The notes under the pieces were generated by a model. That model ran no database searches. It was not told the DNA's origin and saw only the letters and a list, made by a program, of their open reading frames with translations. 64,000 bases of DNA from Candidatus Hydrogenedentota bacterium (GTDB lineage Bacteria > Hydrogenedentota > Hydrogenedentia > Hydrogenedentales > SLHB01): NCBI GenBank assembly GCA_963674865.2, contig CAXXYE010000004.1, positions 256,001 to 320,000 on the forward strand, read 5' to 3'. The stretch's first letter is position 1. Every line of letters starts with the position of its first letter. The translations under genes were made by a program, and so were the position numbers. Shown piece by piece: positions 23,503 to 40,191 of this stretch.

Positions 23503-24981
23503 CTAGTCGGCGATGGGAAGACTCACGGTGAACGTAGTTCCCCGATCCGGCACGCTGACGGCGGCCACGTGTCCTTGATGCGTCTCGACGAGCCTCTTCA
23601 CGAGGCTTAGGCCCAAACCGCTGCCCGGGATCTCAACGGTATGCTGATTCTTGGCCCGGTAGAATTCATCAAACGCGTGTTCCAGTTCATCCTCCGCCAT
23701 CCCTATTCCGTCATCTTTCACGGTGACATGCACGAAGACATCGTTTTGGGCCACGTGCAAGTCCACGTGGCCGTCAGAGTGGGAGTACTTCACGGCATTG
23801 TTGATGAGGTTGCCGAATATGATGAGCAGCGAGTCGGGGTCGGCCAACACGCGTGTATCTTCGGTTCCCGGCGCGATGGAGAGATTCAGGGCGATCTTCT
23901 TCTGTTCCGCCTTCTCCCTATTGGTATCGAGCGAGTTTTTCACAACCTCAGAGATGTTGACAGGGGAGCGCCTAAGTGCGAATTTGCCCGCCTTGATGGC
24001 CTGGAGGTCGAGCAGCTCTTCAATCAACTCTCTCAGAGCACTGATGCGGAGCAAGGAACGCGTGAGCATATGCCGCTGTTTGTCGGGATCGCCTTCTACC
24101 AGGCCGTTAAGAATGAGTTGAAGATAGTTGGCGACCGCCGCGAGGGGGCTCTTCAACTCGTGGGCAACCATGGACACGAACATGGATTTTGTGGTGTCGA
24201 GTTTTTTCAGGGCGGTAATGTCGCGCAGGACGGCCACGGCGCCCACGAGGGTGGCGTCCGGCTCGAAGACGGGACTTGCGCTGGCCAAGAAAGTCTGCTT
24301 GTCGACGGTGATTTCCTTGGACTCGATGACGGGGCCGGAGTCGGCACTCAGGGCTTGTTCGATGAGCTCGGCCAACATGGTACAGCCGATGTCCGAGACA
24401 GGGGAGGAAAGCGGCTGTTGCGCGCACGAGGGCATGGTACTCATGATGGCGGCATTTCGGAGAACAACCTGCCTATCACGGTTGACAACCAGGACGCCGT
24501 CGGTCATGCAACTAATGATGGTGTTGCATCTGGAACGCTCGACGGCTACCTCGAGAAGGCGGTTCTCTTTTTCCTCGCGAAGCCGGCGCGCCTCGATTGT
24601 CAGCGCGCGATGCTCGATGCCGTTTCGGACGGGTAAAAGCAACTCGTCTGGGGTGAATGGTTTAGGTATATATGCATAGGCTCCGCGGTGTGTTGCCTCA
24701 ACCGCGGTCTCTATGGTGGCGTAGGCCGTGATGACGAGGATGACGACATCCTTGTCGAGTGCCCGAAGCTTCTCAATCAATTCCATGCCGCCCATGCGCG
24801 GCATATTGAGGTCGACTAGAGCCATGGCAAAGTCGTTGCGGCTCTGGAAGAGCTCGAGTCCGGCCACGCCATCCGGGGCATCTTCAACAATGAATCCCTC
24901 AGGCGTGAGAATCTTGCGGCATCCCTGGCGCATGCCCTCTTCGTCGTCCACTACGAGGACGCGGGTGACTTCTTCGCTCAT
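23503..24981 (-). CDS. Hybrid response regulator / PAS / histidine kinase (REC-PAS-HisKA-HATPase)
   Basis: VLVVDDE...VDLNMP...KPF; MTDGVLVVN PAS; AHELKSPL; NLINNAVKY, DDGIG, GSGLGL. Confidence 0.93.
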   Translation of the reverse strand: MSEEVTRVLVVDDEEGMRQGCRKILTPEGFIVEDAPDGVAGLELFQSRNDFAMALVDLNMPRMGGMELIEKLRALDKDVVILVITAYATIETAVEATHRGAYAYIPKPFTPDELLLPVRNGIEHRALTIEARRLREEKENRLLEVAVERSRCNTIISCMTDGVLVVNRDRQVVLRNAAIMSTMPSCAQQPLSSPVSDIGCTMLAELIEQALSADSGPVIESKEITVDKQTFLASASPVFEPDATLVGAVAVLRDITALKKLDTTKSMFVSMVAHELKSPLAAVANYLQLILNGLVEGDPDKQRHMLTRSLLRISALRELIEELLDLQAIKAGKFALRRSPVNISEVVKNSLDTNREKAEQKKIALNLSIAPGTEDTRVLADPDSLLIIFGNLINNAVKYSHSDGHVDLHVAQNDVFVHVTVKDDGIGMAEDELEHAFDEFYRAKNQHTVEIPGSGLGLSLVKRLVETHQGHVAAVSVPDRGTTFTVSLPIAD

Positions 24982-25436
24982 TCTGCGTTCTCCCTTGGCT
25001 TTGTGGGAGTCCCATGCCCCTGCGGCGACGCGTCCTGTGATGCCAGAAGCCTATGCACTTCGCCCAGCAGTTGTTGGGGGTCGAGAGGTTTGCTCAAGAA
25101 TGCATCCGTGTTCATGGCCGCGAGATCTTCGTCGGTATGTGGGCGGAAATCGAATCCGCGTTGCGCCGCGGCCGCGGTGACGAGTATGACGGGGAGATGC
25201 TTTGCGCTCGTCATGTCTTTAATGCTCCGGGCAAGTGTGAAGCCGGAATCGAGAGCACTCATCATGAGGTCCGTGATCACAAGATCAGGCAGGTTTTCCT
25301 CCAGACGGGCCAAGGCTTCCGTGGGATCGGCGCACGTCCGAACACCATATCCTGCTCCTTCGAGGACGCACTTGGCCCAGAGAAGAAAGTCCACGTCGTC
25401 GTCGACAATCAGGATGTTCGCCGAAGACTTCGTCAT
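24978..25436 (-). CDS. Single-domain response regulator receiver
   Basis: ILIVDDD, DLVITDLMM, PVILVTA, FLSKP; start ATG 25436 (alternative GTG 25475); stop overlaps the next start. Confidence 0.9.
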   Translation of the reverse strand: MTKSSANILIVDDDVDFLLWAKCVLEGAGYGVRTCADPTEALARLEENLPDLVITDLMMSALDSGFTLARSIKDMTSAKHLPVILVTAAAAQRGFDFRPHTDEDLAAMNTDAFLSKPLDPQQLLGEVHRLLASQDASPQGHGTPTKPRENAE

Positions 25437-25499
25437 GTCACATGCGCTCCCATGGGGCAAGTTCGTGGTATTCACGCCCCGGATGGCCCCAATCCATTC

Positions 25500-27542
25500 C
25501 TACACCTCCGAGTGGCCCGGCGCTCCGTTATCGGAGACGGGCAGCGTGATCGTGAATGTGGTTCCCTTCCCGACCTCGCTTCGGGCCTTGATATCTCCCG
25601 AATGCATCTTAACAATACCGTAGGCTATGGCCAAGCCGAGGCCGGTGCCCTGGCCGATCTCCTTGGTCGTGAAGAAGGGCGTGAAGAGTTTGGCTATGTG
25701 CTCCTCAGGAATTCCCACGCCGTTGTCGGAGACTTCAAGGGCGACGCATCGCTCGCTCTCCGGCCAGGCCCGGACTTGTACTACACCACCCGCGCCATCG
25801 ATTGCATCGAGACCGTTCCCAACGAGGTTAATGAGCATCTGCTTTACCTGGTCGCCGTCGATCATCATGACGGGCAGGTCGTTCTTCACGGAGAAGTCCA
25901 GAACCACTTCATGCTGCTTGGCCTTCGGGGCCATGACGACTCTAACCTCTTCGAGCACACGCGTCAGGTCCGTGGCGGCCTTCGATATGCGTGACTGACG
26001 GGCAAAGTCCAATAGCCCCCTCACGATCTTCTTGCAGCGATCGGCCTCCTTGACAACCATCAGGAGATCGGTCCGTTTGGGATCATCTTCTTGAAGCTGC
26101 TTGAGAAGCATGTGCGAGTAGATCAAAACGGTTCCGAGCGGATTATTAATCTCGTGGGCGACGCCGGCGGAAAGCTGTCCCATGGAGGCGAGGCGTTCGG
26201 TTTGTACCAAGCGTTGCTGCGCTGAAGCCAGCTTCACGTGGGAGTTCTGAAGGCTTTCGCAGGTCTGCTGGAGTTCCTCGATGAGATAGGGGAGACACAT
26301 CTGCGGCTCGGCGAGTCCCTGCCACACCGCAATGGCCTTTTCCCGGCAGGTGGGATAACCGCAGGCTCCGCAGTTCAGTTGGTCCTCCGGACGGAGCTTG
26401 CGCATGCTCGCAAGTGTCTGCTCGATCTCTTCCTCGGAGGGCTCGGTGAGCTCGATATTCTGGGCGGTGAAATAGCGCCCCATGTCCAAGTCTGCGAATT
26501 CGGCCATGCCCTCGACGAGATCGCGTTGTGCCGTATACCTGCCTTGGACATTGACGAAGTCAACGACGCGTTCTTTTCGGACGAGCATGCTGAGGTCGTT
26601 GGCCATTTTCGGCCCACTGATGCAACCTTCACAGAAGAGAATGTCGAAGCATCGCGCTTTGCTTCTTCCTGTGACGAGCTCTTTTAGGACGGCCAGAGCG
26701 CGGTCTTTCCCGTCCGTCATCACGATTTCGCTTTCGAGAATGTCCGCTCCGAGGCCGGCCGTTTTGAGGAGGCCACCGGTGATGGGAAAGGTCCGGCCGA
26801 AGTAGCACCGCGGGCTGTCGAAGCCGCTCTCGGTCATCTCGGTCGCGTCGAGCCCATCGGCTTCGAGCATACGCCCGAGTTCCGGGAAGGTGAGAACCGC
26901 GTCGACGCAGCCAGCTACCGCGGGCTTCCGCATTTCGTTTTTCTTGGCGATACAAGGTCCGATGAAGACGACGGCTGCGTCGGGGCAGCGTTTGCGAACA
27001 GCGCGGGCGGTCGCCACCATGGGCGATACGACGGGGGCAAGCACGTCGAGCAGCTCGGGCATGTATTTCTCGACGTAGGCCACGATGGCGGGGCACGCCG
27101 TCGCGACGACCTTTGCCCCCGTACGCTCGGACTCGTGGAAGAGCCTGGTGTACTCGCGGGAGACGAGCTCCGCGCCAAACGCGACTTCCCAGACGGCGTG
27201 AAAGCCGAGCGCGCGCACGGCCGCGACTACCTGGCCGGGGCTGAGGTCGCTGAAGGCCGCCGGGAAGGACGGGGCTAGGCAGGCGAACACGGGTTTGTCA
27301 CCGGCAAGAAGCTGCCGGACCTCGACGGTGCTATCCTGGATGTGCTTTGCCTTTTGGGCGCAGACCTTTACGCAGTTTCCGCATGCGATGCAGCGGTTCT
27401 CAATCACCACCGCCTGGCCTTCTTCAACCTTGATGGCCTTTGCGGGGCATTCGCGCACACAGGTATAGCATCGCCGACACTTCTCGGGGATAGTCGAGAT
27501 TACCGGGGGGCGGTTTTCTGCTTCGGAACCGGGGCCTTTCAT
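25500..27542 (-). CDS. Putative sensory [FeFe]-hydrogenase (group C-like) fused to a histidine kinase
   Basis: Two CxxCxxCxxxC ferredoxin motifs; H-cluster-like motifs ATACPA, GPCIAKKNE, DILFCEGCISG; FeS motif CGACGYPTC...C; AHEINNPL, NLVGNGLDA, DNGVG, GTGLGL. Confidence 0.88.
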   Translation of the reverse strand: MKGPGSEAENRPPVISTIPEKCRRCYTCVRECPAKAIKVEEGQAVVIENRCIACGNCVKVCAQKAKHIQDSTVEVRQLLAGDKPVFACLAPSFPAAFSDLSPGQVVAAVRALGFHAVWEVAFGAELVSREYTRLFHESERTGAKVVATACPAIVAYVEKYMPELLDVLAPVVSPMVATARAVRKRCPDAAVVFIGPCIAKKNEMRKPAVAGCVDAVLTFPELGRMLEADGLDATEMTESGFDSPRCYFGRTFPITGGLLKTAGLGADILESEIVMTDGKDRALAVLKELVTGRSKARCFDILFCEGCISGPKMANDLSMLVRKERVVDFVNVQGRYTAQRDLVEGMAEFADLDMGRYFTAQNIELTEPSEEEIEQTLASMRKLRPEDQLNCGACGYPTCREKAIAVWQGLAEPQMCLPYLIEELQQTCESLQNSHVKLASAQQRLVQTERLASMGQLSAGVAHEINNPLGTVLIYSHMLLKQLQEDDPKRTDLLMVVKEADRCKKIVRGLLDFARQSRISKAATDLTRVLEEVRVVMAPKAKQHEVVLDFSVKNDLPVMMIDGDQVKQMLINLVGNGLDAIDGAGGVVQVRAWPESERCVALEVSDNGVGIPEEHIAKLFTPFFTTKEIGQGTGLGLAIAYGIVKMHSGDIKARSEVGKGTTFTITLPVSDNGAPGHSEV

Positions 27543-27555
27543 CGTTTATAGTCCT

Positions 27556-29328
27556 CTAGACTCGCGTTCTCTCGCTATAGGCCGTGTGCAAGAGATGGTG
27601 TGACTTTTCGCCGAGAGGGGTGCCGAGGAACTCTTCATAGAGCTGTTTGATCTCGGGATTCTCGTGGGACTTGCGCAGTTTCTTGCCTTCATCTTCACGG
27701 CAGATGGCGGCGATGCGCGCCTTGCGCACTTGATCCGTGGTTACTCGCGGTTGGCCGCCGCCGCCGATGCATCCGCCGGGACAGGTCATGATTTCGACGA
27801 AATGGTATTGGGCCTCGCCGCTTCGGATGCGCTCGATAACCTTGCGCGCGTTACCGAGGCCGTGCGCCACGGCGACATTGAGGGCAACGCCGTCGAGGAA
27901 GGCCCATTCCGGAAGCGGGTCCTGGATGGTGAGCGACGCTTCTTTGATGCCGTCCAATCCGGCGATGGGCTCAACGCGCAGGCTGTCGAAGGGCAGTTCC
28001 CTGCCTGTGACGAGTTCATAAGCGGTGCGGAGGGCGGCTTCCATTACGCCGCCGGTGTTGGCGAAGATATCGGCGGCGCCGCTGGACATTCCGATGGGGG
28101 CGTCCATGGTGTCATCGGGCAGGGAGTCGAAGGCGACGCCTGCTTGCTTGATCATGCGCCCAAGCTCTCGGGTGGTAAGCACGATATCTACATCGCGCAC
28201 GCCGCTGTCGTCCATCTCGGGGCGCTGGGCTTCGAACTTCTTCGCTGTGCATGGCATCACGGAGACGACGACAATGTCGTCGGGATCTTTGTTGATCTTC
28301 TTAGCGTAGTAGGTCTTGGCAATCGCGCCGAACATCTGCTGGGGAGACTTGCACGTGGAGACGTTGTCCAGCATGTCGGGATGGAAGTACTCGATGAACT
28401 TGATCCAGCCGGGTGAACAACTCGTGAATTGTGGAAGCGCAACGGGCTGCTGATCGACCAGGGCTGTCTTAAGGCGGCTAAGGAGCTCGGAGCCCTCTTC
28501 CATGATCGTCAGATCCGCGGCGAAATTGGTGTCGAATACCGCGTCGAATCCCAAGCGGCGAAGGGCGGAAACCATCTTCCCGGTGACGAGTGTCCCCGGC
28601 GGATAGCCGAAGCATTCTCCGAGGGCCGCTCGAATGGCCGGCGCGGTCTGCACGACGACGTGCTTGTTCGGATTGTCAAGGGCGGCCCATACTTCGGCGA
28701 TTTCGTCCTTCTCGCTGATGGCGCCGACGGGGCATACGGCGGCGCACTGGCCGCACTGGACGCAGACGACATCGGCGAGGTCGTTACAGAAGGCGGGGCC
28801 TATCACCGTATCGAATCCGCGGTTCTGAGGGAAGAGTCCGCCTACGCCCTGCACTTCGCCGCATACGGTTACGCATCGGCGGCAGAGGACGCACTTGGCG
28901 GAGTCGCGGATGAGCGCCGGTGTACTGTCGTCCACGAAGCGCCGGCTCTTCTCACCGGTGTAGGTTATTTCCCGGATTCCGAGATCGCGGGCGAGGGTTT
29001 GTAGTTCACAGTCCTCGTTGCGATCGCAGGTCTGACAGTCGCCGTCGTGGTCGGAGAGCAGAAGCTCGACGACGGTTCGGCGCGCCTCACGTGCGCGCTT
29101 GCTGTTGGTGAATACCTTCATCCCGTCCGTGGCCGGCGTCGCGCACGAGGCCACGAGCGCCCTGGCGCCCTCGACCTCGACGAGGCAGACGCGGCAGGCG
29201 CCGATGGCTTGGGCGCCCTCCATATAGCACAGCGTAGGGATGGTGACGCCGGCGAGCTCGGCAGCCTTGAGGATGGTGGTCCCCTCCGAGACTTCGACGG
29301 TGATATTGTCGACAGTCAATGTCGGCAT
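27556..29328 (-). CDS. hydA: [FeFe]-hydrogenase catalytic subunit, group A3 type (HydA/HndD)
   Basis: N-terminal 2Fe-2S (IPTLC...CRVCLVE), HxxxCxxC, two 4Fe-4S motifs, FTSCSPGW, MPCTAKKFE, EIMTCPGGCIGGGGQP, SHENP...LLHT; GAGGAG RBS before ATG 29328. Confidence 0.96.
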   Translation of the reverse strand: MPTLTVDNITVEVSEGTTILKAAELAGVTIPTLCYMEGAQAIGACRVCLVEVEGARALVASCATPATDGMKVFTNSKRAREARRTVVELLLSDHDGDCQTCDRNEDCELQTLARDLGIREITYTGEKSRRFVDDSTPALIRDSAKCVLCRRCVTVCGEVQGVGGLFPQNRGFDTVIGPAFCNDLADVVCVQCGQCAAVCPVGAISEKDEIAEVWAALDNPNKHVVVQTAPAIRAALGECFGYPPGTLVTGKMVSALRRLGFDAVFDTNFAADLTIMEEGSELLSRLKTALVDQQPVALPQFTSCSPGWIKFIEYFHPDMLDNVSTCKSPQQMFGAIAKTYYAKKINKDPDDIVVVSVMPCTAKKFEAQRPEMDDSGVRDVDIVLTTRELGRMIKQAGVAFDSLPDDTMDAPIGMSSGAADIFANTGGVMEAALRTAYELVTGRELPFDSLRVEPIAGLDGIKEASLTIQDPLPEWAFLDGVALNVAVAHGLGNARKVIERIRSGEAQYHFVEIMTCPGGCIGGGGQPRVTTDQVRKARIAAICREDEGKKLRKSHENPEIKQLYEEFLGTPLGEKSHHLLHTAYSERTRV

Positions 29329-29382
29329 ACTTCCTAAACTCCTCTTTATGTTTCCGTTGCCTTCGGACGACATCCAAGGGCG

Positions 29383-32300
29383 CTAGGCCTGCAGATTCGT
29401 CTCGACTCCGTAGTCGCAGCGAAGGCAGCGGCATGCCTCGCGCAGGGCCGTTTTTTCCTCGAAGGGCAATTCCACTTCATTGAAATTCTCTCGGCGTTTT
29501 GCAATGGGAAGCAGCTTGATGCATGCGCGTGGGGCCTCCGATGGCTCCGCATCGGGGTCGAAGGAAGTGTCGACTTCGTAAGGCATGCGCCAGAAGGCGT
29601 GCTCCTCGTTGGTCAGGTACTTATCAATGCCGACGGCGGCGCGTTCACCGGCGCCGACGGCTTCGACGACGGAAGACGGCCCGCGCGCGGCATCGCCGCC
29701 CGCAAAGAGCCATTCCACCGAGGTCTGGCCTGTGAGCCGGTCGGACCACACGAAGTTCCATGAGGTCAGCTCAACGTCAAGGCCGTCGAGGACTGATTCA
29801 AGGTCCAACTTCTGCCCGATGGCGGCGATGACTTGGTCGCCTTCTTCGACAAAGGTGCGGCCTTCGCACGCCTCGGGGCGTCTGCGGCCGCTCCTATCGA
29901 ACTCGCCGAGAGCCATGTGGCTGCACAGTACGCCGGTGACGCGCCCGTTCTCGACGACGATCTCGCTCGGCGAGACGAGCATCTTGAGAAGAACGCCTTC
30001 ATGCTCGGCCTCTTCGACCTCTTCGGCATAGGCGGGCATTTCCTCGCGGGTGCGCCGGTACAGGATGGTCACGGATGATGCGCCCAGCCGGACGGCGGTG
30101 CGGGCGGCGTCCACGGCGGCGTTTCCGCCACCGATAACGATGACCTTCTTGCCAACGGGCACCGAACCGCGCAGGTTGTACTCGCGAAGGAAGCGAATGG
30201 CGTCGGTGACGCCTTGGGCATCTTCGTTAGGGATGCCTAGGCGGGTGCCGTGGGGGGCGCCCACGCCGAGGAATACCGCGTCATATCCGTCTTCGCGCAA
30301 ACCGTTCAAGGTGAAGTCGTGTCCGAGGCGCATGCCGGTTTCGATATCTACGCCGAGGCGTTCGATCATACGGATCTCGCGAGCGAGTTCTTCGCGCGGG
30401 AGGCGGTACGCGGGAATGGTCTGGACGAGCATTCCGCCCGGACGCGGCTCGGCCTCGAATACCGTGGGGCGGTAGCCTAGACGCGCGAGGAAATAGGCGC
30501 AGGAGAGTCCGGCCGGGCCCGCGCCGATGACGGCGATTTTTCGTTGGGCGTTTTTCTCGTTGTCGCGGACGTCGGGAAGCTGGATCGTCACTTCCTGTTC
30601 GACGAGGTAGCGCTTGAGGCCACGGATGGAGACGGCGTCATCCAGCGTGGAGCGTCGGCACTTGTCCTCGCAGGTATGGAAGCAGACGCGGGCGCATACC
30701 GACGCGAAGGGATTCCGGTTGCGATGGAGTCGAAGGGCTTCGGCATAGCGCTTCTCGGCGATGAGTGAGACGAAGCCTGGAATATTGACGTTTGCGGGGC
30801 AGGCGCTGATGCAAGGGGCGCGCACCAGGGCGGGGCACACGCCCGCCGGGCAGCGCTTCTCTCGGATGTGCGCCTCGAACTCGTCCCGGAAATGGCGGAT
30901 GGCCGACAGCACGGGATTGGCCGCGGTTTGGCCCAAGCCGCACAGGGCCGTGTCCTTGATCTGGTTTCCAAGGGTGATGAGGCGTTCGATGTCGCCCTCT
31001 TCACCTTTGCCTTCACAGATTCGCGTGACAATCTCCAGCATGCGTTTGGTGCCTATCCGGCAGGGAACGCACTTGCCGCATGACTCGTCCTGCACGAAGT
31101 CGAGGAAGTAGCGGGCCATATCGACCATGCACGTATCCTCGTCCATGACGATGAGTCCGCCGGAGCCCATGATGGCCCCGAGTTCATTGAGGGATTCGTA
31201 GTCAACCGGCACGTTCAGGTACTGCTTGGGTATGCAGCCGCCGGAGGGGCCGCCAATCTGCGCGGCTTTGAATGCCTTACCTTTGGGGATGCCTCCGCCG
31301 ATGTCGTAGATGATTTCCCCGAGCGCGGTGCCGACGGGCACCTCAACGAGGCCGGTGTTGTTGACGGCGCCCGCGAGCGCAAAGACCTTCGTCCCTTTGC
31401 TCTTCTCGGTTCCGAAGGTGCTGTACCAGTCGGCGCCCCTCTGGATAATGACGGGGATGTTTGCGTAGGTTTCGACATTATTGAGGAGGCTGGGCTTTTC
31501 CCAGAGGCCTTTGACGGCCGGGAATGGGGGACGGGGGCGGGGCTCGCCGCGCTTGCCCTCGACAGAGCGCATCAAGGCGGTTTCCTCACCGCAGACAAAG
31601 GCCCCTGATCCCATCCGGATCTCGAGGTCGAAACTGAAGTCTGCTCCGAGGATATTCTGCCCAAGGAGTCCGTATTCCCTCGCTTGGGCGATGGCGTTTT
31701 CGAGGCGCTCAACGGCCAGGGGATATTCGGCGCGGACGTAGATGAATCCCTGGCTCGCACCGACGGCGTATCCCGCGATGGCCATGGCCTCGATGACGCT
31801 GTGCGGATCGCCTTCGAGGACGCTGCGATCCATGAACGCGCCCGGATCGCCCTCATCGCCATTGCAGAGGACATACTTCGTGTCGCCCGGCGCCTTGCGC
31901 GTGAAGCTCCACTTCAGGCCGGTGTTGAAGCCGGCGCCGCCGCGCCCGCGCAGTCCGGAGCGTTTGACTTCGTCAATGACTTGGTCAGGACTCATCTCCG
32001 TGAGCGCCTTGGAGAGGGCCTGGTAGCCGTCCCGTGCGATGTACTCGTCAATGTTGGTGGGGTCGATGACTCCGCAATTGCGAAGCACCACCTTCTGTTG
32101 CTGTTGGAAGAATCCTATCTCCCTGAGGGCCGGGACGATCTGCGCCGTCGCCGGTGTCTGGAAGTTCAGGCGCTCGACCACCCTTCCTTTGAGGAGGTGT
32201 TCTTCAACGAGGTCGGCGGCGTCTTCCGGTTTGAGGCCTTGGTAGAAGATCCCGTCCGGATAGACCACTGCCACGGGGCCGACGGCGCAGGGGCCGAGGC

Positions 32301-32490: not shown

Positions 32491-32862
32491 TTAGTCTGCG
32501 ATCAAATACTCGAGGACGGGTTGTCCGTCGAGGACGTGTTCCTGGACAATTTTTCGGATTCGCTCGGCGTTGAGCTTCCCGTAGTGGTGCTCGGCGCCAT
32601 CGCCCGTCGCTACCGTCAGCATGGGCTCGCGGTCACAAAGGCCGGCGCATCCCGACTGACGCAAGGTGACGTTATCGACCTGGGATGATTCGAGTTCGGC
32701 GACCAGGGCGGCAAGCACGTCGCGTGCGCCGGCGGCGATTCCGCAGGTGCCCATGTGTACGGTGATCTGGATATCCTTGGGTTTGCCGCGAACATCCATT
32801 TCGGCACGTGCACTTTCCCGAAGCGCATTGAGGTCCTTAGGATTGTTGATTTTTGGCGACAT
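32491..32862 (-). CDS. Thioredoxin-like [2Fe-2S] ferredoxin subunit (HydD/HndB-like)
   Basis: VHMGTCGIAAGA, QSGCAGLCDREP, IVQEHVLDG; AAGGAG RBS. Confidence 0.88.
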   Translation of the reverse strand: MSPKINNPKDLNALRESARAEMDVRGKPKDIQITVHMGTCGIAAGARDVLAALVAELESSQVDNVTLRQSGCAGLCDREPMLTVATGDGAEHHYGKLNAERIRKIVQEHVLDGQPVLEYLIAD

Positions 32863-32900: not shown

Positions 32901-33437
32901 CTATGCCTGGTTCACGGGGGAAAGGTCTTCCCTCTCGATATACTCGTCCAGGATCGCCTGGATCTTTGTGGGTTTGACGCGTTGATAGACGTCATTGTCG
33001 ATCATGATGGCCGGGGCAAGGCCGCAAGCTCCAAAACAGCGCGCCACGTCGAGCGAGAAGAGGCGGTCTTCCGTCGTCTGGCCGACGTCAATGCCAAGGC
33101 GTTGCTTTAGCGCCTCGAGTACCTGCTTGCCTCCGCGGACATAACACGCTGTGCCCAGGCAAACACGAATGACGTGCTTGCCTCTTGGGATAGTCGAGAA
33201 GAAGGAGTAGAAACTCACCACTCCCGCCACTTCGCTGTAGGATTTGCTGAGGCCCAGACTGATGGCCTTCAGCGCTGACTCGGGAAGGTAGCCGAACATG
33301 GCCTGCGCGATTTGCAGCACCGGGATGAGGGCTCCCGGCTTGTCGCGGTAGTCGGCAATGACTTCATTGAGCCGCTCCAGCAATTCCTCTTCTGAGAGCC
33401 CTTCCGTACAGGCGCAGGGCTTGGTTTGCTCGCTCAT
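32901..33437 (-). CDS. hydC: HydC/HndA (NuoE-like 2Fe-2S subunit); also the C-terminal half of the 384-aa ORF
   Basis: LIPVLQIAQ, GVVSFYSFF, IRVCLGTACYVRG, RCFGACGLAP; own RBS GAAGGAGA before ATG 33437. Confidence 0.9.
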   Translation of the reverse strand: MSEQTKPCACTEGLSEEELLERLNEVIADYRDKPGALIPVLQIAQAMFGYLPESALKAISLGLSKSYSEVAGVVSFYSFFSTIPRGKHVIRVCLGTACYVRGGKQVLEALKQRLGIDVGQTTEDRLFSLDVARCFGACGLAPAIMIDNDVYQRVKPTKIQAILDEYIEREDLSPVNQA

Positions 33438-34055
33438 ACATCTCTCCTTCTCGATGACATTGTTTCCATTCCCTTTAATGCGTTCGAGCCCCATGGCGGC
33501 GTGCGCGGCGGGGCGACAACTGAACAAGGCTGTGAGGTGCGCACGAAGCTTTTCCGAGACGCGGCGTGCGACGACAAGGCCATATCTATCGTCTGAATCG
33601 ATCTCGCGGGCCACATCCGACACGCGAATCGAGCAATCGGAGCCGTCCGCTTTTATCTGGCACCAAAGGTCCAAGGCCGGGTTTGTACAGACAACGGACG
33701 ACAAGGTGGTCGCGAGATCGCCCAAGGGCTGGCGGTCCACGTTGCTCAATTGCATCTTGACGTCGACCTGTAGTCCGCCGAGCCTTGATTTGTCCATGGA
33801 GAGCGAGCCGCCCGCGCGTTCGGCCGCAGCCTTGAAGAGGCTGAGGCCAAGTCCCGTTCGCTTCCCGTTTTTCGTCGTGTAATAGGGGTCGAGGGCCTGT
33901 TCGGGCGTTACCGTCAGTCCAGGGCCGTTATCCTCGACGATGAGCTTAAGCCAATCTTCGGCGCGGCTTTCGGCGATGGTGACCGCGATGACGGAGGCGC
34001 CGGCGCGGAGCGCGTTCTCGACGACGTCCAGAATATGTAGGGATATCTCACGCAA
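32901..34055 (-). CDS. HATPase_c (kinase-like ATPase) reading in frame into hydC
   Basis: MREISLHILDVVENALRAGA, EDNGPG, DPYYTTK, GLGLSL, DRQPLGD; no stop before the hydC start; TTG start overlaps the PHP gene stop. Confidence 0.8.
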   Translation of the reverse strand: MREISLHILDVVENALRAGASVIAVTIAESRAEDWLKLIVEDNGPGLTVTPEQALDPYYTTKNGKRTGLGLSLFKAAAERAGGSLSMDKSRLGGLQVDVKMQLSNVDRQPLGDLATTLSSVVCTNPALDLWCQIKADGSDCSIRVSDVAREIDSDDRYGLVVARRVSEKLRAHLTALFSCRPAAHAAMGLERIKGNGNNVIEKERCMSEQTKPCACTEGLSEEELLERLNEVIADYRDKPGALIPVLQIAQAMFGYLPESALKAISLGLSKSYSEVAGVVSFYSFFSTIPRGKHVIRVCLGTACYVRGGKQVLEALKQRLGIDVGQTTEDRLFSLDVARCFGACGLAPAIMIDNDVYQRVKPTKIQAILDEYIEREDLSPVNQA

Positions 34056-34782
34056 TTGAACAGCTTCTCCCTGATGCGCCGGCTAAGGCCAGAGCCAATT
34101 CCTCGAACGTTGCGTCGTGCATGTGGAACACGGTGTGGCAACTTCCGAGGTCGTCGAGGAAATGACTGTCCGAAGCCGCCAAGACGGGGAATCCGAGGTG
34201 GGCGAAGTCCTGGGAACGGCCGGCGCGAACGCCGACAGGAGAGATTTCGATGGCGTCGAAATGAGTCTTTTCAGGCCATATGCCGAGTTGGCTGGTTACT
34301 GAGAAAGAGGGCCTATCGACGTGCGAAGCGATGGCCAATGCGCCGTGGGCGTGGGCAAAGTCTACAGCGTCGTCGAGGGAAAGGCGCCATGCCGAGGACA
34401 GAAGACGCGACTCTTTTCCGATGGTGTTTCCACGGGATTCCATCAAGCGTTGGGAGCCAAAGGTGTCGCTGCGATCCGCGCCGTTCGGCAGGTCATCTAG
34501 AATCGTCCGTCCGGCTCGTGATGCCGCGTCCGCATCCGGAAACAGCGCAAGAACATGGATCTCCTCGGCGGTCGTCATCTCGATGCCGGCGAACACCGTC
34601 AGGTTGTCCCCTGCGGCCGTCATGACGGCCGCAGCGTTTCCTGCCGTGTTATGGTCGCAGATGGCCACGATGTCGAGTCCTTTGTTGATCGCTTGGGAAA
34701 CGATCGCCGGGGGCGTCATTTCCGGGTCGGCGCACGGCGATAGCGCGGTGTGTACGTGCAGATCTGCTGCGAACGCCTTCAC
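34048..34782 (-). CDS. PHP-domain phosphoesterase of hydrogenase-associated type
   Basis: ADLHVHTALSPC, AICDHN, GIEMTTAEEIH, SHVDR, SDSH. Confidence 0.9.
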   Translation of the reverse strand: MKAFAADLHVHTALSPCADPEMTPPAIVSQAINKGLDIVAICDHNTAGNAAAVMTAAGDNLTVFAGIEMTTAEEIHVLALFPDADAASRAGRTILDDLPNGADRSDTFGSQRLMESRGNTIGKESRLLSSAWRLSLDDAVDFAHAHGALAIASHVDRPSFSVTSQLGIWPEKTHFDAIEISPVGVRAGRSQDFAHLGFPVLAASDSHFLDDLGSCHTVFHMHDATFEELALALAGASGRSCSIA

Positions 34783-35132
34783 TCATTGGGCCCTCGCAAA
34801 CCAAGGGCGTAAAGACGCCCGACGATGTCAAACGCCGGTTGCCGGGAAGTGTAGAGGGCGATTCCCTCCTCGGCGGCCTTGGCACGGGTGTTTTCATCGG
34901 GCCGGCGGTCGGAGGCGAAGATAATCGCCGCCAACTCGGTATGTAACGCCACGGCTACGACGTTGGTGTGTACCTGAACCGTAACAAGGACGCCGGAGCG
35001 CGGCGCGTGGGCTAGGACATCGCTCAATAGGTCGGACACGTGGCCGCCCGCTACTTCCCTTTCATCGTCGGGGGTAATTTCGGGGGTCAGGTTCTCTAGT
35101 TCCAGTTTTCGAGCGATTTCAGCTAGTTTCAC
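34779..35132 (-). CDS. DRTGG-domain protein
   Basis: GTG start overlapping the upstream stop; VKLAEIARKLEL...GGHVSDLLSDVLA...VTVQVHTNVVAVA...AEEGIAL. Confidence 0.82.
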   Translation of the reverse strand: MKLAEIARKLELENLTPEITPDDEREVAGGHVSDLLSDVLAHAPRSGVLVTVQVHTNVVAVALHTELAAIIFASDRRPDENTRAKAAEEGIALYTSRQPAFDIVGRLYALGLRGPNE

Positions 35133-36712
35133 GGGAGTTCCTCCGCCCGCGGCGCGCCTGCGTAGGGGCACGCCGACAGTTTGGCCCGGCCTAGGACGAT
35201 ATCTTCCGCAAGTGCCGAACAGGTCGGGGCGCCGCACACTCCGCAGTTTCGTCCGGGAAGCGATGCGGCCATTTTGTCCATCCGGCCCAGTTTTTCGATG
35301 GCTTTGGCCATGTCGGGGTCGAGTCGGATCCCGGCTATCGGCCTTATGTCTTTCAGTCGGCAAACAGCGCCCGCCCGCGCGGGCGCCAAGTGGTCGTTTA
35401 GGAGAGAGGCGGCTGTGCGCCATGAGCGTTCAGCCAAGTAGGGGTCTTGGCCCCACACCGGAGAGCCGAAGCACCCCTGTTGACAGGCGTAGAGTTCCAG
35501 GACGCGGGCGCCTGGATCGGCGCCGGTCTCGAGCGCCTCGAGAACGGCCGTAACATGGCCAAGGCCGCTTACCTGGAGCACGTCGCCGGGCGCACCTTTC
35601 GTCGGCGTCTCGTCGACGGAAGGCGACGGTGTCTTCCTGTCCCGGAGGCCCGTCATGACGGCTTCATAAAGTGCTCGGGCGGAGATCATGTCCGTTCCCG
35701 TCAAGAGGCCGGCAGCGTGCAGAACGGCGATCTGGGCCGGGCAGAGCGCGATGAAAGAGGAGTGAGAGCAGGTGAGTTCTTGGCAGGCTGCCTCGATTGG
35801 CGTCAGGAATGGGGCCACCAATCGCAATAGCGAGGCGTACCGCAGGTGGATCAGATTCATCACGGCCGGACACACGGGTGAGATGATCGGCCCAAGATTT
35901 GAGCGGCGCGCGTAGTTCCTGACGGCCTCGCGAAGAGGGATTTCCCATTCGCTGCTGAGCCGAATCGTCTCAAATCCGAGTTCTCTCAGCGTAGCTAGAA
36001 TGTCCTGCGGCCGGTAGGCGAGCCCGAACTGGCCAAGGAAGGCCTCCGGCAGTACCAGGCATTTATCGGCTGAAAAGGGAAGCGGCTCCGCGTCGCGCCA
36101 CACGCCTAACGCCCCGGTATCGCAGGCCTCGATACATGACGCGCAGCCTACGCACAGATGATCCAGGATGGCGGGCGCGTCGTTGCGGATGCGGACGGCT
36201 TGTGTTGGGCAGGCGCGCAGGCAGGCCAGGCAAGTGTGGCAGCGTTCCGGATGGATGTGGACATGGCTCGAATGCCGCGCCGGCTCGCCGGTTTCCTGTT
36301 GGAGCAGCACCTTGAATCGAACCTGAGTGCCGCAGCCAACCGTGGAACTGACGGAGAACTCATCGGTGTTCCGCCGTATGTTGGGGAAACCCATTCCGGC
36401 GCCGAAGCCCAGTTCCCGCGCGCGGGGGGGGGCGGTGGAGAAACCTTCCCGCATAGCCTGAGGGATATCGGATATCCCGGGGCCGGTGTCCTCAATGGAC
36501 ACATCCACCTGAGAGGGATCGATGCCGATACGCATGACGCCTCCTCGTGCGTGGATCACGGTGTTCATCTCGGCCTCGTAGGCTGCGATCATCGTTCTGC
36601 GAATGCTCTCCGGCGACGCACCGATGCGTTTCAACATTTCCTTAAGCTGTCTTGTGGCATGCCCCCCGGCCTCGTAGTCGCCTCCGGCGATGTCGAACAC
36701 CGCCGTCTTCAT
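35129..36712 (-). CDS. RsbT-like Ser/Thr kinase (HATPase) fused to ferredoxin, degenerate [FeFe]-hydrogenase-like and FeS domains
   Basis: AAYEAEMNTVIHA, DTGPGISDI, EGFSTA, GFGAGMG; CHTCLACLRACP and CVGCASCIEAC; SPVCPAV, ALCPAQ, ELYACQQGCFGS; LPGRNCGVCGAPTC; start ATG 36712. Confidence 0.82.
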   Translation of the reverse strand: MKTAVFDIAGGDYEAGGHATRQLKEMLKRIGASPESIRRTMIAAYEAEMNTVIHARGGVMRIGIDPSQVDVSIEDTGPGISDIPQAMREGFSTAPPRARELGFGAGMGFPNIRRNTDEFSVSSTVGCGTQVRFKVLLQQETGEPARHSSHVHIHPERCHTCLACLRACPTQAVRIRNDAPAILDHLCVGCASCIEACDTGALGVWRDAEPLPFSADKCLVLPEAFLGQFGLAYRPQDILATLRELGFETIRLSSEWEIPLREAVRNYARRSNLGPIISPVCPAVMNLIHLRYASLLRLVAPFLTPIEAACQELTCSHSSFIALCPAQIAVLHAAGLLTGTDMISARALYEAVMTGLRDRKTPSPSVDETPTKGAPGDVLQVSGLGHVTAVLEALETGADPGARVLELYACQQGCFGSPVWGQDPYLAERSWRTAASLLNDHLAPARAGAVCRLKDIRPIAGIRLDPDMAKAIEKLGRMDKMAASLPGRNCGVCGAPTCSALAEDIVLGRAKLSACPYAGAPRAEELP

Positions 36713-37059
36713 TGGGCCGGGGTGTCCATGAGTCCGTCGCCAAAGAGGTGGCCAAGGCGGGCGCACGTCTCGCTCATGTCGTGGGGAGACACCATAAGGG
36801 CCATACCGTGGTCGGCGACTGCCTCAACCAGTGCCGGTTCGGGCTTGATGCCGTTGAGCAGACAGATGCCTGCTCCGTCCATCAGTGCGACGGGACCCGC
36901 CAGCAGGGCGTGCGAAAGGTTGGTGACTAACAGCGTGCCATGTGTTACCTCACTCAACAGGTCGCTCATTCTGTCCCCCCCGTAGGCGCGCGTAATGGCT
37001 TCCGTCCCGGGGGTCAACAGACTGGCTTCGATGCTCGCTGCAATGTTTTCTGGTGTCAT
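36709..37059 (-). CDS. DRTGG-domain protein (first gene of the hydrogenase operon)
   Basis: AYGGDRMSDLL, TLLVTNL, GICLLNGIKP; paralogous pattern to 34779..35132. Confidence 0.78.
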   Translation of the reverse strand: MTPENIAASIEASLLTPGTEAITRAYGGDRMSDLLSEVTHGTLLVTNLSHALLAGPVALMDGAGICLLNGIKPEPALVEAVADHGMALMVSPHDMSETCARLGHLFGDGLMDTPAQ

Positions 37060-37092
37060 GAAGGCGCCACCTTTTCTAACCGTGAAAGGAAG

Positions 37093-37108
37093 AGCAAGTC
37101 TCGGGCCA
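37093..37108 (-). promoter_or_regulatory. sigma54 (-24/-12) promoter of the hydrogenase operon
   Basis: TGGCCCGAGACTTGCT: GG-N10-GC, a close match to TGGCACG-N4-TTGCW, 33 nt upstream of ATG 37059. Confidence 0.8.
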
Positions 37109-37196
37109 GTTCGGCGTCATTGATCGATGTTGTCGTAAGTGGTGGCGATGCAATGACATGCGGCGATTGCGGGGAGTTGGTTCCGGCGGGAGGCCG

Positions 37197-37230
37197 TGTT
37201 CCTCTTTCTCCCATGGGAGATCTGTGCACA
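37197..37230. promoter_or_regulatory. Candidate upstream activator sequence (inverted repeat) for a sigma54 activator
   Basis: TGTTCCTCTTTCTCCCA|TGGGAGATCTGTGCACA: two inverted TGT-N11-CCA units around the perfect 14-bp palindrome TCTCCCATGGGAGA, about 90-120 bp upstream of the -24 box. Confidence 0.55.
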
Positions 37231-37303
37231 CGCTGGGGCCGAGAGCGGGTGGAGGCGGTGGCGTTCGGAAGGCGGGAGGCTGCGAGGCCTCCGGGTGGCG
37301 TCG

Positions 37304-38704
37304 TTACCGGCGGAAAGATTCTGCGCTAAAGCCGTATTTCTTCATGCGCTCGTAGAGCGCTCGCCGCGAAATGCCCAGCATTTGGCTGGTGGCCGTTACC
37401 TCGCCGCGTTGCTCGCGTAAGGCTGCCTCGATCACGGCAGACTCGGTGCGTTCCATCTCATCGCGCAGGCGGCCGGCCGTGGCGGGCAAGGATAGGAGCC
37501 GGGTCGGATTTCCCGGCGAATCCAGGTCGGGTTCTCCCGCGACGCCGTCGGCGGCGGTGAGTACCATTCGCTCGACGGCGTTCCGGAGTTCGCGGACATT
37601 GCCGGGCCACTCGTACCGCAGTAAACGCGCGAGGACGGACTCCGGTACTACCGGAGCGGGGACGCCGTAGCGATCGGCAATCCGCCGGGCAAAATACGAA
37701 ACGAACAGGGGAATATCATCCGCACGTTCTCGGAGGGGGGGGACGAAGACACGGAGCACGACGATGCGGTGGTAGAAGTCCTCGCGCATATCGCCGTCGC
37801 GAACTAATCGCGCCAGGTCCACTTTGGTTGTTGCAAGAAGCCGAACGTCTACCCGGCGCGCGGAGTCCTTGCCCAGTGGCTCAACCATCCCGTCTTCGAG
37901 GACGCGCAGCAGGTGCAACTGGGCTCGTTCGGATATGCTCTCGACCTCGTCCAAGAGGAGGGAGCCGCCGGTTGCCGCCACAAGCTTTCCATCGCGGTCC
38001 TCGGTGGCGCCGGTGAAGGCGCCTCGGGCGTGGCCGAACAGCTCGCTTTCGAGAAGCGCTTCCGGCAGGGCGCCTGCATTGGCCGCGACGAAGGGCCCGT
38101 CCGCACGGCGGCTCTGTGAATGGATGGCGCGCGCGGCGAGTTCCTTTCCGACGCCCGTTTCGCCCACAACGAGTACCGGTGCGTCGGAGCGAGCGGCCAT
38201 TTCGATCTGCTCGTACACATCCTGCATCGCGGGACTGCGGCCCACCATTCCGAAGCGGCCGTCTTCGCCGGTGGGCAGCATGCTCAGGCGCCTGCGCAGC
38301 TCTTCGCTTTCGCGCTGAAGCTCGGATTTCTCGACTGCGCGCTGTACGCGAGCCAGTAGGAAGTCGTCCTCGAAGGGCTTCTCAATGAAGTCGTAGGCCC
38401 CCGTCTTGAGGCAACGTACGGCCATGGCGACGTCGCCGTGGCCGGTGATCATCACAATAGGACACGGCACCTTGCGCCGCATGGCCTCCTCCAGGAACTC
38501 CTCGCCGTCCATTCCAGGCATCTTGATATCGCTGATGGCGCAGTCGGCCTCCATAAGCCGGGGCCAGGCCAAGGCTGCCTCCGCGGACGAGAAGAACTCG
38601 ACGGTATAGCCTCGGAGTTGGAGCATTTGGCCGATGGAGAAGCGGGCCGCCTCGTCATCATCTATGACTGCCACCAATCCGTGCCGCTGTTCCGTTCGGC
38701 TCAT
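37304..38704 (-). CDS. sigma54-dependent response regulator (NtrC/DctD family: REC-AAA+-HTH)
   Basis: VIDDD, SDIKMP, GETGVGKE, ESELFGHARGAFTGA, LLLDEV, WPGNVRELRN, LGISRRALYERMKKY. Confidence 0.95.
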   Translation of the reverse strand: MSRTEQRHGLVAVIDDDEAARFSIGQMLQLRGYTVEFFSSAEAALAWPRLMEADCAISDIKMPGMDGEEFLEEAMRRKVPCPIVMITGHGDVAMAVRCLKTGAYDFIEKPFEDDFLLARVQRAVEKSELQRESEELRRRLSMLPTGEDGRFGMVGRSPAMQDVYEQIEMAARSDAPVLVVGETGVGKELAARAIHSQSRRADGPFVAANAGALPEALLESELFGHARGAFTGATEDRDGKLVAATGGSLLLDEVESISERAQLHLLRVLEDGMVEPLGKDSARRVDVRLLATTKVDLARLVRDGDMREDFYHRIVVLRVFVPPLRERADDIPLFVSYFARRIADRYGVPAPVVPESVLARLLRYEWPGNVRELRNAVERMVLTAADGVAGEPDLDSPGNPTRLLSLPATAGRLRDEMERTESAVIEAALREQRGEVTATSQMLGISRRALYERMKKYGFSAESFRR

Positions 38705-40191
38705 GATTCGTCCGATGCCTCCTGGGCCGATGCGCCGGCCTCCGCAGTTTCGGCGGCGGGCAAACGTACCGTGAAGGTCGCGCCGCGCCCATCGTCGCTG
38801 TGGGCTTCGATGCTGCCGTTGTGGTCTTTGACGATGCTCAACGATATCGAGAGTCCCAGGCCTGTGCCGTGGCGGCTCTTCTTGGTGCTGTAGAAGGGCG
38901 CGAAAAGCCTTTCGGTTGTTTCCGGAGCGAATCCCTTGCCCGTATCGACGATCTCTATGACGACGGGGCGGTCGTTCTCCGGCTCGTGCCGCGTTCGGAT
39001 TTCGAGCCGGCGTACCTCCATGTCCTCCATGGCTTGGCGGGCGTTCGTGAGCAGATTCAGAAAGACTTGCTCTAAGCGTATTGCGTCCCCGGACACCGGG
39101 GGCAGGTCTTCCGCGAGCGAATGCGAGACGGATACGCCCGAAAGTCTCAACTGGGGCATCACGAACTCGACGGTTTCGACAAGCTTCTGGTTGATGTCCA
39201 CGAGGGCAAACTGCCGCTCCGATCGGCGGGCCAGTTCGCGCATCTGCGCAATGATCCTCGAGGCCCTGTCCACCTGGCCCGCGATCAGGCGTAGATTCTC
39301 CGCCACGTCACCGACATTTTCCCGGAGCATGTAGGATGCGTTTTGGGCGTAGTTCTTGATGCCTGTCAACGGCTGGTTCAATTCATGGGCGATTCCTGCC
39401 GCCATCTCGCCCATCTCCGCCAGACGTGTCGAGTGAACCAGTTGCTCCTCTTGTTTCCGGGCGAGTCTGGAAAGCTCTTGGTGCTTGGCCTCGATTCGCT
39501 CCATTTCCGAAATGTCATAGACACTGGCCAACACCGCGCGTTTCCCTTCGTATTCCACCAGCGAACTCGCGATGTCTCCCCAGACGGTGCGGCCATCCTT
39601 GGCCACGAGACGGCAATCGTAACGCAGGTCGGAAGCGGCTGCGTTCTTGCGAGACGCCACCAGTTCCCGCACCTTAGGTTGATCATCTTTATGGATGAAG
39701 TCCCAGAATGGCCGCCCGGCCACTTCGTCGAAGCGATATCCCATGAACTCCTGGATGCGGGGATTGGCGTAGAGAATGCCCTCATCGCTGTAGATGACGA
39801 TGCCGGAAAGCGACTTCTCGACGATGTCGCGGTAGCGCCTTTCAGAGGCCCTGCATGCCCGGTGTGCCGCAAGGGCCTGATCCCGAACGGCGCCCAATCC
39901 GAGGGCCACGACGAAGAATGATACGAGGCGCGCCGAGTCGCCCCACGGATCAGGTGTGGCGACGAGCCAGATCCGCGCGGCAAGCGGGACGGCTGCAAGA
40001 ATGCCCGCCATAAGGACGCCTTTGCGGCCCCACCACAACGCACTGAGTACGAGCGCCATGTAGGCCAAGGGCGAGAAGAAGCTCTCGGAACGCGCGTTGC
40101 CGGCATGCACCACCATCAGAACGCAATACGCGGCCCCCAGCGCGAGAATCGCGGACGTCTGGAGCCATTGTGACCTTCGAGGCATACGCAT
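38701..40191 (-). CDS. Membrane PAS-domain sensor histidine kinase
   Basis: N-terminal TM helices, PAS (SERRYRDIVE...YANP...FIHKDD), AHELNQPL, QVFLNLLTNARQA, DTGKG, GTGLGL. Confidence 0.93.
   Translation of the reverse strand: MRMPRRSQWLQTSAILALGAAYCVLMVVHAGNARSESFFSPLAYMALVLSALWWGRKGVLMAGILAAVPLAARIWLVATPDPWGDSARLVSFFVVALGLGAVRDQALAAHRACRASERRYRDIVEKSLSGIVIYSDEGILYANPRIQEFMGYRFDEVAGRPFWDFIHKDDQPKVRELVASRKNAAASDLRYDCRLVAKDGRTVWGDIASSLVEYEGKRAVLASVYDISEMERIEAKHQELSRLARKQEEQLVHSTRLAEMGEMAAGIAHELNQPLTGIKNYAQNASYMLRENVGDVAENLRLIAGQVDRASRIIAQMRELARRSERQFALVDINQKLVETVEFVMPQLRLSGVSVSHSLAEDLPPVSGDAIRLEQVFLNLLTNARQAMEDMEVRRLEIRTRHEPENDRPVVIEIVDTGKGFAPETTERLFAPFYSTKKSRHGTGLGLSISLSIVKDHNGSIEAHSDDGRGATFTVRLPAAETAEAGASAQEASDES

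Follow-up and report, generated by a model that had tools for sequence, protein, structure and literature searches.

A sub-type I [FeFe]-hydrogenase operon of a Hydrogenedentota bacterium and its three probably separable signalling modules

Introduction

Which signals control a multimeric [FeFe]-hydrogenase whose genes are accompanied by two hydrogenase-derived kinases, and does H2 sensing govern the expression of the enzyme encoded beside them? These questions are raised by a locus of Candidatus Hydrogenedentota bacterium (GenBank assembly GCA_963674865.2, contig CAXXYE010000004.1), which was analysed within a window of 64,000 nucleotides (positions 256,001 to 320,000 of the contig; window positions are used below). 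A sequence-only reading had described the locus as the best candidate for an undescribed system, sigma54-driven, in which a Ser/Thr partner-switch-like circuit and a His-Asp phosphorelay, each with its own Fe-S/H-cluster-like input, control an enzyme with two pyridine-nucleotide sites. We found the locus to be real, conserved and assembled from catalogued parts. Judged by sequence comparison, it is fairly probably a sub-type I HydABCD operon, with a HydB-GltD subunit, that has gathered three separable signalling modules. The results suggest that a conserved activator site, a sensor kinase lacking the 2Fe pocket and the candidate DRTGG substrates are what is new here.

Results

Layout of the locus

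Gene and Pfam calls recovered all 14 modules in the same direction on the minus strand, from 40191 to 23503, and confirmed the co-directional, often overlapping arrangement and the order that had been described (Table 1). A membrane PAS histidine kinase and a sigma54 activator with REC, AAA and helix-turn-helix (HTH) parts come first. They are followed by DRTGG1, an RsbT-like kinase fused to a hydrogenase-like protein, DRTGG2, the PHP and HATPase genes, hydC, hydD, hydB-GltD, hydA, a hydrogenase domain (H-domain) fused to a histidine kinase (HydS::HK), a receiver and a hybrid kinase. Overlaps of 4 bp were present at six junctions and the end of the PHP gene overlaps the start of the HATPase gene; the remaining gaps were 13 to about 65 bp, except for the 244 bp between the activator and DRTGG1. 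The phospho-acceptor and ATP-binding motifs were intact in all five His-Asp proteins of the locus, and the same genome (G000) encodes HydG, HydF and RpoN.

The sigma54 activator and its site

The sigma54-driven character of the locus was supported by direct sequence evidence. The sequence marks of a sigma54 regulon are present: an activator with GAFTGA and HTH, a genomic RpoN, a -24/-12 element and a conserved upstream site. This site, a 34-bp palindrome, was the sole match in the 64-kb window, where 0.02 are expected by chance. Scored with a matrix built from seven other loci, its own site left out, it reached 34.4 bits, and no further target was found in the 5.8-Mb genome, the maturase genes and two other hydrogenase clusters included, the next score being 14.6 bits. 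The GG-N10-GC element at 37109-37093 was the only window site above the threshold. Scans for sigma70 promoters and for terminators gave counts at chance level (2 vs 4.0 and 17 vs 15.7, respectively).

The activator has orthologues in 7 of the 135 genomes of the phylum (68-71% in the 6 others), with a conserved HTH helix. A degenerate palindrome pattern allowing one mismatch was matched in 10 of the 135 genomes, compared with 3 for a reversed control, and the matches were distributed over six of the seven genomes with the activator and 4 of the 128 without it. In the seventh activator genome (G025), a palindrome of 40.3 bits was present in the hydrogenase operon once that operon had been fetched. 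The palindrome and the -24/-12 element thus lie directly before the first gene of a sub-type I operon in 7/7 activator-bearing genomes; in G036 a contig break separates HATPase from hydD, and the link of the site to hydB is presumed there. The activator itself is unlinked to the hydrogenase operon in five of the seven. In all fetched loci long enough to show it, the membrane PAS kinase adjoins the activator, also where the activator is unlinked, and is likely its cognate kinase. Its N-terminal region resembles DUF4118 below the cut-off only, in two orthologous domains (atlas lead 0.88), and domain and atlas searches identified no ligand of the PAS kinase.

A DNA-only scan of Joint Genome Institute (JGI) metagenomes yielded 20 loci, with cassette genes directly behind the site in 16 and a contig edge in 3. 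At the remaining locus (L176:144-7030), the palindrome and a -24/-12 element precede an operon for a molybdopterin oxidoreductase, NuoE and NuoF::GltD, with no hydrogenase. A -24/-12 score of at least 18.2, which 2.5% of random windows attain, was present in 19 of the 20 loci. The palindrome matches of G037 and G047 (11.7 and 4.7 bits) were rejected as weak. A different arrangement was observed in five Actinomycetota loci (L083:8859-9971, L084, L085, L087 and L089), in which a Rex::DRTGG1 fusion heads the same cassette, DRTGG1 forming the C-terminus of a Rex-type repressor; Pfam confirmed the Rex domain in 3/3 loci scanned, and the palindrome was not seen in the five.

Several points weigh against the assignment of this regulon. 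The -24/-12 threshold of 18.2 was chosen after the hits had been seen, and its matrix was made by hand from the consensus. The 20 loci represent 16 distinct palindrome strings, several of them near-copies; some of the loci counted had already served to build the pattern, and some metagenome loci are kin to those used for it. A true palindrome site occurs in G023, in whose genome (84% complete) the activator was not found, and G021 (L192:1500-1534) has a strong palindrome (41 bits) flanked by an efflux gene and Fe-S genes and accompanied by neither a -24/-12 element nor the cassette.

We favour a first module in which the membrane PAS kinase would phosphorylate the activator; the latter would bind the palindrome, which lies some 130 bp before the predicted start, and open the -24/-12 promoter of a 12-gene operon. 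The accessible text of a clostridial sigma54 survey describes Fe_hyd_lg_C input domains in activators and mentions no hydrogenase target. No published account of sigma54 control of a HydB-GltD enzyme, or of its activator site, was found in the literature searched, which covered few subscription papers.

The RsbT-fused hydrogenase-like domain

The RsbT fusion keeps two [4Fe-4S] sites, the four H-cluster cysteines and a C-terminal Cx2Cx4Cx16C motif, which is the group D architecture. The four cysteines and the E289 equivalent were kept in 114 of the 120 fused homologues. The L2 lysine, which we take to be the holder of the 2Fe subcluster, was present in 0/120, with Gln (98), His (11) or Glu (7) instead. 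In an alignment with unfused relatives, which bear group D marks, the same lysine occurred in 0/41 fused vs 63/68 unfused sequences. The M353 position was Ala, Pro or Val in 41/41 fused and Ser or Thr in 67/68 unfused sequences, and the E252 column was gapped in 36/41 fused and Glu in 62/68 unfused ones. The losses of the lysine, the hydroxyl at the M353 position, the GGE loop and about 26 residues of the domain go together, and D265 is also absent. A quick tree of 67 sequences placed the fused domains on the group D side, where they made up a single clade with a long branch (support 100). A model of the fusion (predicted local distance difference test, pLDDT, 87.5) matched both [FeFe]-hydrogenases and SpoIIAB, with a template modelling (TM) score of 0.82-0.84 over SpoIIAB (PDB 1til), and the catalytic motifs of the RsbT-like kinase are invariant.

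The known relative is TamHydS, a group D (M2e) protein with the same order of 2x[4Fe-4S], H-domain and Cx2Cx4Cx16C, which also lies beside a kinase-like ATPase and upstream of a multimeric hydrogenase. According to the accessible parts of the papers on it, TamHydS binds 2Fe and turns over H2, with E252 as a proton relay (PMC8163306, PMC10407848, PMC11803613, PMC13104023). In contrast to TamHydS, the domain studied here is fused to its kinase, and K358, the M353 hydroxyl, E252 and D265 are missing from it. It is a derivative of the TamHydS type that probably serves as an Fe-S redox sensor rather than an H2 sensor, most likely a cubane-only one with four cubane sites. The claim of two H-cluster-like inputs is thus unsupported, because this domain has lost the residues of the 2Fe pocket.

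Alternatively, the domain could still bind 2Fe in a remodelled pocket and sense H2, which would give the locus two H2 sensors of different ranges. The retained cysteines and E289 equivalent, the hydrogenase-like fold of the model and the loading of 2Fe by TamHydS despite many changes (PMC8163306, as far as its accessible text goes) are consistent with this. However, the pocket residues, the loop and a further part of the domain are lost as a set, and motifs P1-P3 are hardly found in the HATPase-bearing 'C1' set, according to the accessible part of PMC11406978. We regard a remodelled pocket as quite improbable.

The DRTGG, GHKL and PHP cassette

The label DRTGG held for the two small proteins only by way of relatives. 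Neither protein alone matches Pfam; 64 of 70 DRTGG1 orthologues match PF07085, the fold of DRTGG1 matches AF1212/2ioj (TM 0.83), and DRTGG1 and DRTGG2 match each other as profiles (HH probability 99.9). Both contain an Asp-x-x-Ser motif, whose serine is kept in 100/100 DRTGG1 and 91/92 DRTGG2 sequences and lies at a helix N-terminus in the DRTGG1 model. The RsbT-like kinase has a DRTGG gene before it in 110 of 115 evaluable cases, and HATPase has one within 2.6 kb upstream in 82/89; both counts include partly redundant and related loci. In split operons, DRTGG1 stays with RsbT and DRTGG2 with HATPase.

The RsbT-like kinase shares its fold and catalytic motifs with the kinases of the SpoIIAB/SpoIIAA and RsbT/RsbS partner switches. 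In contrast to these systems, Pfam and profile searches of the locus revealed neither a STAS protein nor a PP2C phosphatase nor a sigma factor, and none of the 8 STAS and 4 SpoIIE matches of the genome lies inside the window. The proposed Ser/Thr partner switch in the usual sense was therefore not borne out. Elsewhere in the genome, a stressosome-like region separate from the locus (G000:C3:107184-112019) contains four STAS matches, two RsbT-like genes and a SpoIIE-type phosphatase.

The simplest interpretation that we infer is that DRTGG1 and DRTGG2 are candidate substrates in two kinase-substrate pairs served by one phosphatase. The H-domain of this second module, a derived form of a common DRTGG-RsbT-group D-DRTGG-PHP-GHKL cassette in which the kinase and the group D protein are fused, would read the redox state through its Fe-S clusters and set the Ser phosphorylation of DRTGG1. 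The second GHKL protein would pair with DRTGG2, and PHP would reverse both phosphorylations. Two observations speak against this interpretation: a DRTGG gene is not within 2.6 kb upstream of HATPase in 7/89 cases, and the DRTGG1 of the window departs from several positions conserved in its family.

Instead, the cassette might serve the NuoE/NuoF-type core as a module for nucleotide sensing or for assembly, with the GHKL proteins as ATPases and the serine in a structural or ligand-binding role. Known DRTGG domains, in the sources as far as accessible, serve pyrophosphatases and phosphotransacetylases in regulation or oligomerisation; an output domain is missing from the cassette, and a GHKL gene, hydE, lies inside the Acetobacterium woodii operon (hydC-hydE-hydD-hydB-hydA; accessible text of PMC10472528). 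But the first kinase has the SpoIIAB fold with invariant catalytic motifs and is fused to a domain resembling an Fe-S sensor, a metallo-phosphoesterase is co-conserved, and the placement of the serine in the model also argues for phosphorylation. We consider this alternative rather unlikely. No paper on DRTGG proteins in hydrogenase operons was found in the literature searched.

HydS::HK and the His-Asp branch

HydS::HK has the four cysteines and the L2 lysine in 120/120 homologues, a C-terminal Fe-S motif, Gly at the M353 position and Ala in place of the proton-relay Cys. These last features, and the location in a hydrogenase operon, are shared with TmHydS of group C (M2f), as described in the accessible text of PMC10055695 and PMC5037454, which also lists the HydDB class C1 as 'histidine kinase-linked' and putative. 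Unlike TmHydS, HydS::HK has no C-terminal PAS; HisKA-HATPase follows directly, so that the output lies in the same chain. Compared with HydA and group D, the spacing of its two L3 cysteines is shorter by one residue. Plausibly, HydS::HK could hold a full H-cluster, as the only sensory H-cluster site among the two hydrogenase-kinase fusions.

The H-domain kinase adjoins a receiver or a hybrid kinase in most fetched loci. No shared output gene was found after the hybrid kinase, either in the downstream open reading frames (ORFs) of the fetched loci or among the query families. In the third module, the group C-like kinase would be the only plausible H2 sensor and would pass its signal on to its accompanying receiver and hybrid kinase; the output may lie outside the locus or be post-translational.

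If the H-domain kinase relayed its signal, by way of the receiver and the hybrid kinase, to the sigma54 activator or to the activator's kinase, this integrated H2 feedback would let the operon tune its own expression to H2. All parts occur in a single locus not only here but also in G061 and in spirochetes. At the HydS::HK position, G061 has a kinase (L044:3313-4518, core 64%, with hydG/E/F-like genes downstream) whose membrane domain resembles that of the activator kinase, and the hybrid kinase has an intact H-box and no partner receiver downstream. However, G014 (98% complete) and G024 (100%) have the same 12-gene cassette with the His-kinase branch, and neither an activator orthologue nor the palindrome was found in them. 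A paralogous branch stands behind another hydrogenase of this genome, where there is no palindrome, and the three histidine kinases of the locus differ in the residues after the phospho-His. Such a feedback is therefore unlikely in our judgement. The earlier claim that the hydrogenase-derived kinases control expression found no support: nothing seen in the locus ties H2 sensing to transcription of the operon, because the activator stays with the PAS kinase and no shared output gene was seen.

The two further multimeric hydrogenase clusters of the genome lie at G000:C9:512244-520042 and G000:C3:61377-64967. In the C9 cluster, an H-domain kinase, a receiver and a hybrid kinase, all paralogous to those studied here, follow the hydrogenase genes; in the C3 cluster, a receiver precedes hydC, and hydG and hydF are nearby. 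The genome also has two rpoN-like loci (the one at C7:2916-4305 in two pieces) and two hydG matches above the cut-off, the positions of this set being C9:557873, C7:2916-4305, C3:58410 and C1:451463.

The HydABCD enzyme

HydA with its H-cluster motifs is accompanied by NuoE- and NuoF-like subunits, as in group A3/Bfu enzymes. Its L1 motif is the same as in A. woodii HydA1 (7q4v), and the HydA and HydB cores align to those of A. woodii at E values of 1e-194 and 2e-246, respectively. HydB contains two pyridine-nucleotide folds, in agreement with the two sites claimed earlier, and the second Rossmann fold is presumably of the NADP type. The marks of bifurcating beta-subunits are Ala/Met in the NADH region, Phe near flavin mononucleotide and GGPSG (accessible text of PMC7311640); HydB and 10/10 related fusions have the same motifs as A. 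woodii HydB, the reference being A. woodii and not Thermotoga maritima numbering.

The similarity to 7q4v_B stops at residue 540, DPD_II and Pyr_redox_2 follow, and the C-terminal B3/B4 pair is not present. A. woodii HydB ends in a ferredoxin-like part; HydB of the locus ends in an NADP-type module. Five Fe-S clusters including the C-terminal B3/B4 pair are given as a defining feature of BfuB in the accessible text of PMC9304861 and PMC11406978. Since HydB lacks this feature, the enzyme probably works like HydABC but links H2 to both NAD(H) and NADP(H), with no ferredoxin involved. The DPD_II and FAD/NAD(P) domain of the BfuB-type subunit and the presence of BfuD agree with sub-type I. A swapped C-terminal module was observed in L187:9297-12371 and L178, in which the HydB core is 81% and the GltD part 38% identical and a second hydC-hydB directly follows.

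Conservation and distribution

The RsbT fusion was matched in 31 of the 135 phylum genomes, its own included; the surroundings of 24 among the 30 others were fetched. G014, G027 and G024 have the 12-gene core in one unbroken piece, and in G023 it is apparently split over short contigs. G061 also has the activator pair, and a kinase with a membrane domain replaces the H-domain kinase downstream. In G020, G025 and G035, the cassette is shared out between two hydrogenase clusters.

A GTDB survey considered the best 80 of 577 loci. The kinase and the hydrogenase-like protein are separate in 70 of these 80, mostly from Bacillota and Bacteroidota, and fused in 10, from Brocadiia, Spirochaetota and Actinomycetota. 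Where hydB was visible in fused loci, it had the GltD form (7/7), and in three spirochete loci the PAS kinase and the activator also lie upstream. The expected conservation of the signalling genes beside homologous hydABCD holds across phyla; the cassette is, however, both common and modular. Less in keeping with a function tied to the hydrogenase, seven loci (L050-L056; G043, G078, G077, G048, G104, G101 and G097) have the five-gene DRTGG/RsbT-fusion/DRTGG/PHP/HATPase cassette without an adjoining hydrogenase.

Gene calls and flanking genes

HATPase and hydC had been described as separate genes. In the window, they form a single open frame (34055-32901, 384 aa), although hydC is provided with a separate ribosome-binding site and an ATG at 33437. 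The letters at the junction are identical in two assemblies, both from one sample, which suggests that the read-through is not an obvious assembly slip, the supporting contigs sharing that sample. Among 25 related pairs, one (G023, L057:5691-6857) also reads through, with a linker differing from that of the window; a conserved HATPase::HydC fusion was rejected on these counts (1 fused vs 24 separate) and the different linker. For the last kinase, labelled REC-PAS-kinase, REC, HisKA and HATPase were confirmed; Pfam found no PAS, and the PAS-like part is deduced from covering PhoR/WalK profiles.

Table 1. Positions of the genes and regulatory elements of the hydrogenase locus in the 64-kb window
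Feature	Position	Strand	Remarks
Membrane sensor histidine kinase	38701..40191	-	N-terminal hydrophobic region (weakly DUF4118-like), PAS, HisKA, HATPase; likely the activator's cognate kinase
Sigma54 enhancer-binding response regulator	37304..38704	-	REC, AAA+ with GAFTGA, Fis-type HTH
34-bp imperfect palindrome, candidate upstream activator sequence	37197..37230	-	Two tandem 17-bp sites
Sigma54 -24/-12 promoter element GG-N10-GC	37093..37109	-	33 bp before the DRTGG1 start
DRTGG1, stand-alone DRTGG protein	36709..37059	-	Invariant Asp29/Ser32; candidate substrate of the RsbT-like kinase
RsbT/SpoIIAB-like Ser/Thr kinase::2x[4Fe-4S]::degenerate group D H-domain::C-terminal Fe-S motif	35129..36712	-	
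DRTGG2, stand-alone DRTGG protein	34779..35132	-	Near-invariant Ser37; candidate partner of the second GHKL protein
PHP-family metallo-phosphoesterase	34048..34782	-	Metal ligands intact
Stand-alone GHKL (HATPase_c), no HisKA	33438..34055	-	No stop before hydC
HydC, NuoE-like, [2Fe-2S]	32901..33437	-	Own ribosome-binding site and ATG
HydD, thioredoxin-like [2Fe-2S]	32491..32862	-	Pfam
HydB::DPD_II and FAD/NAD(P) GltD-type module replacing the B3/B4 ferredoxin end	29383..32442	-	
HydA, catalytic group A subunit	27556..29328	-	Full H-cluster motifs; NF040763 above cut-off
HydS::HK: sensory group C-like H-domain, 2x[4Fe-4S], C-terminal Fe-S motif, fused HisKA-HATPase	25500..27542	-	
Single-domain receiver	24978..25436	-	Phospho-site intact; ATG start assumed, upstream GTG at 25475 possible
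REC-(PAS-like)-HisKA-HATPase hybrid kinase	23503..24981	-	Pfam and PhoR/WalK profiles

After the last kinase, an 86-codon frame (23059-23319, minus strand) has no Pfam match and an end weakly resembling a HATPase C-terminus (tblastx 7.6e-4 to the HydS kinase); it is possibly a relic. The flanks (3820-22936, 40479-46497 and 9892-9965) contain sulfatases, glycoside hydrolases, an FGE-sulfatase/BNR fusion and one transfer RNA, and the ORFs at 6254-8620, 21962-22936 and 41959-44061 have no Pfam match. A gene pair for a bacterial alpha-2-macroglobulin and PBP1C lies at 46799-55324.

Discussion

The enzyme of this locus has a close published counterpart. The accessible part of PMC11406978 (Zheng and Huang 2024) describes the sub-type I BfuABDC hydrogenases of group A3 in Hydrogenedentota, with DPD_II and FAD/NAD(P) domains in BfuB in place of B3/B4, with BfuD and with Ser in P1. 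Our enzyme has the same BfuB layout, BfuD and Ser in P1, and its close homologues bear the name Ca. Hydrogenedentes. The same source describes 'C1' hydrogenases with HATPase_c and barely recognisable H motifs and 'C3' hydrogenases (BfuT) with a His-kinase domain, which both fusion types of the locus resemble. This match was made by description, not by sequence, because motif searches of the accessible data set for the two fusions gave no matches. Since the enzyme sub-type and, by description, both fusion architectures appear there, the system cannot be called undescribed.

There are also differences. PMC11406978, as far as accessible, ties BfuT to sub-types IV and V; here the His-kinase H-domain follows a sub-type I hydA. 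Its supplement text gave no match for DRTGG, anti-sigma, sigma-54 or RsbT, and its accessible text mentions none of these and describes no promoter or activator, although its picture figures S4 and S5 may show gene order. The accessible text of PMC3608648 notes an upstream kinase and a group D gene in Thermoanaerobacter operons, and the A. woodii operon (7q4v) resembles the locus in having a kinase-like gene within it, the homology of HATPase and HydE resting on position and annotation. No characterisation of the full combination was found in the literature searched, to which a 2010 clostridial hydrogenase review did not belong, and to this extent the locus remains uncharacterised, as the sequence-only reading had it.

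A more far-reaching interpretation is tentative, and we hold it as possible rather than probable. The stand-alone DRTGG proteins may be an unrecognised class of Ser phospho-acceptors that replaces STAS, and two kinase-DRTGG pairs with PHP may supply the output circuit that group D hydrogenases have so far lacked. The sensor of this lineage would have become an H-cluster-free redox sensor with four cubanes, fused to its kinase. H2 sensing would have passed to a separate histidine kinase, and a dedicated sigma54 activator, whose place a Rex::DRTGG fusion takes in Actinomycetota, would control NuoF::GltD-containing NAD/NADP enzymes. The interaction partners of group D hydrogenases were still unidentified in April 2026, and their identification was called critical in the accessible text of PMC13104023.

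The palindrome provides a precise DNA handle on what switches on the HydB-GltD class of enzymes. Its copy before a molybdopterin oxidoreductase operon with the same NuoF::GltD hints that the signal concerns the NAD(P) balance, not H2. For the question of how sensory [FeFe]-hydrogenases signal, the locus offers both sensor types side by side. The group D fusion supplies a natural control with no 2Fe pocket, and both sensor types carry a kinase in the same chain, so that kinase activity would be a direct read-out.

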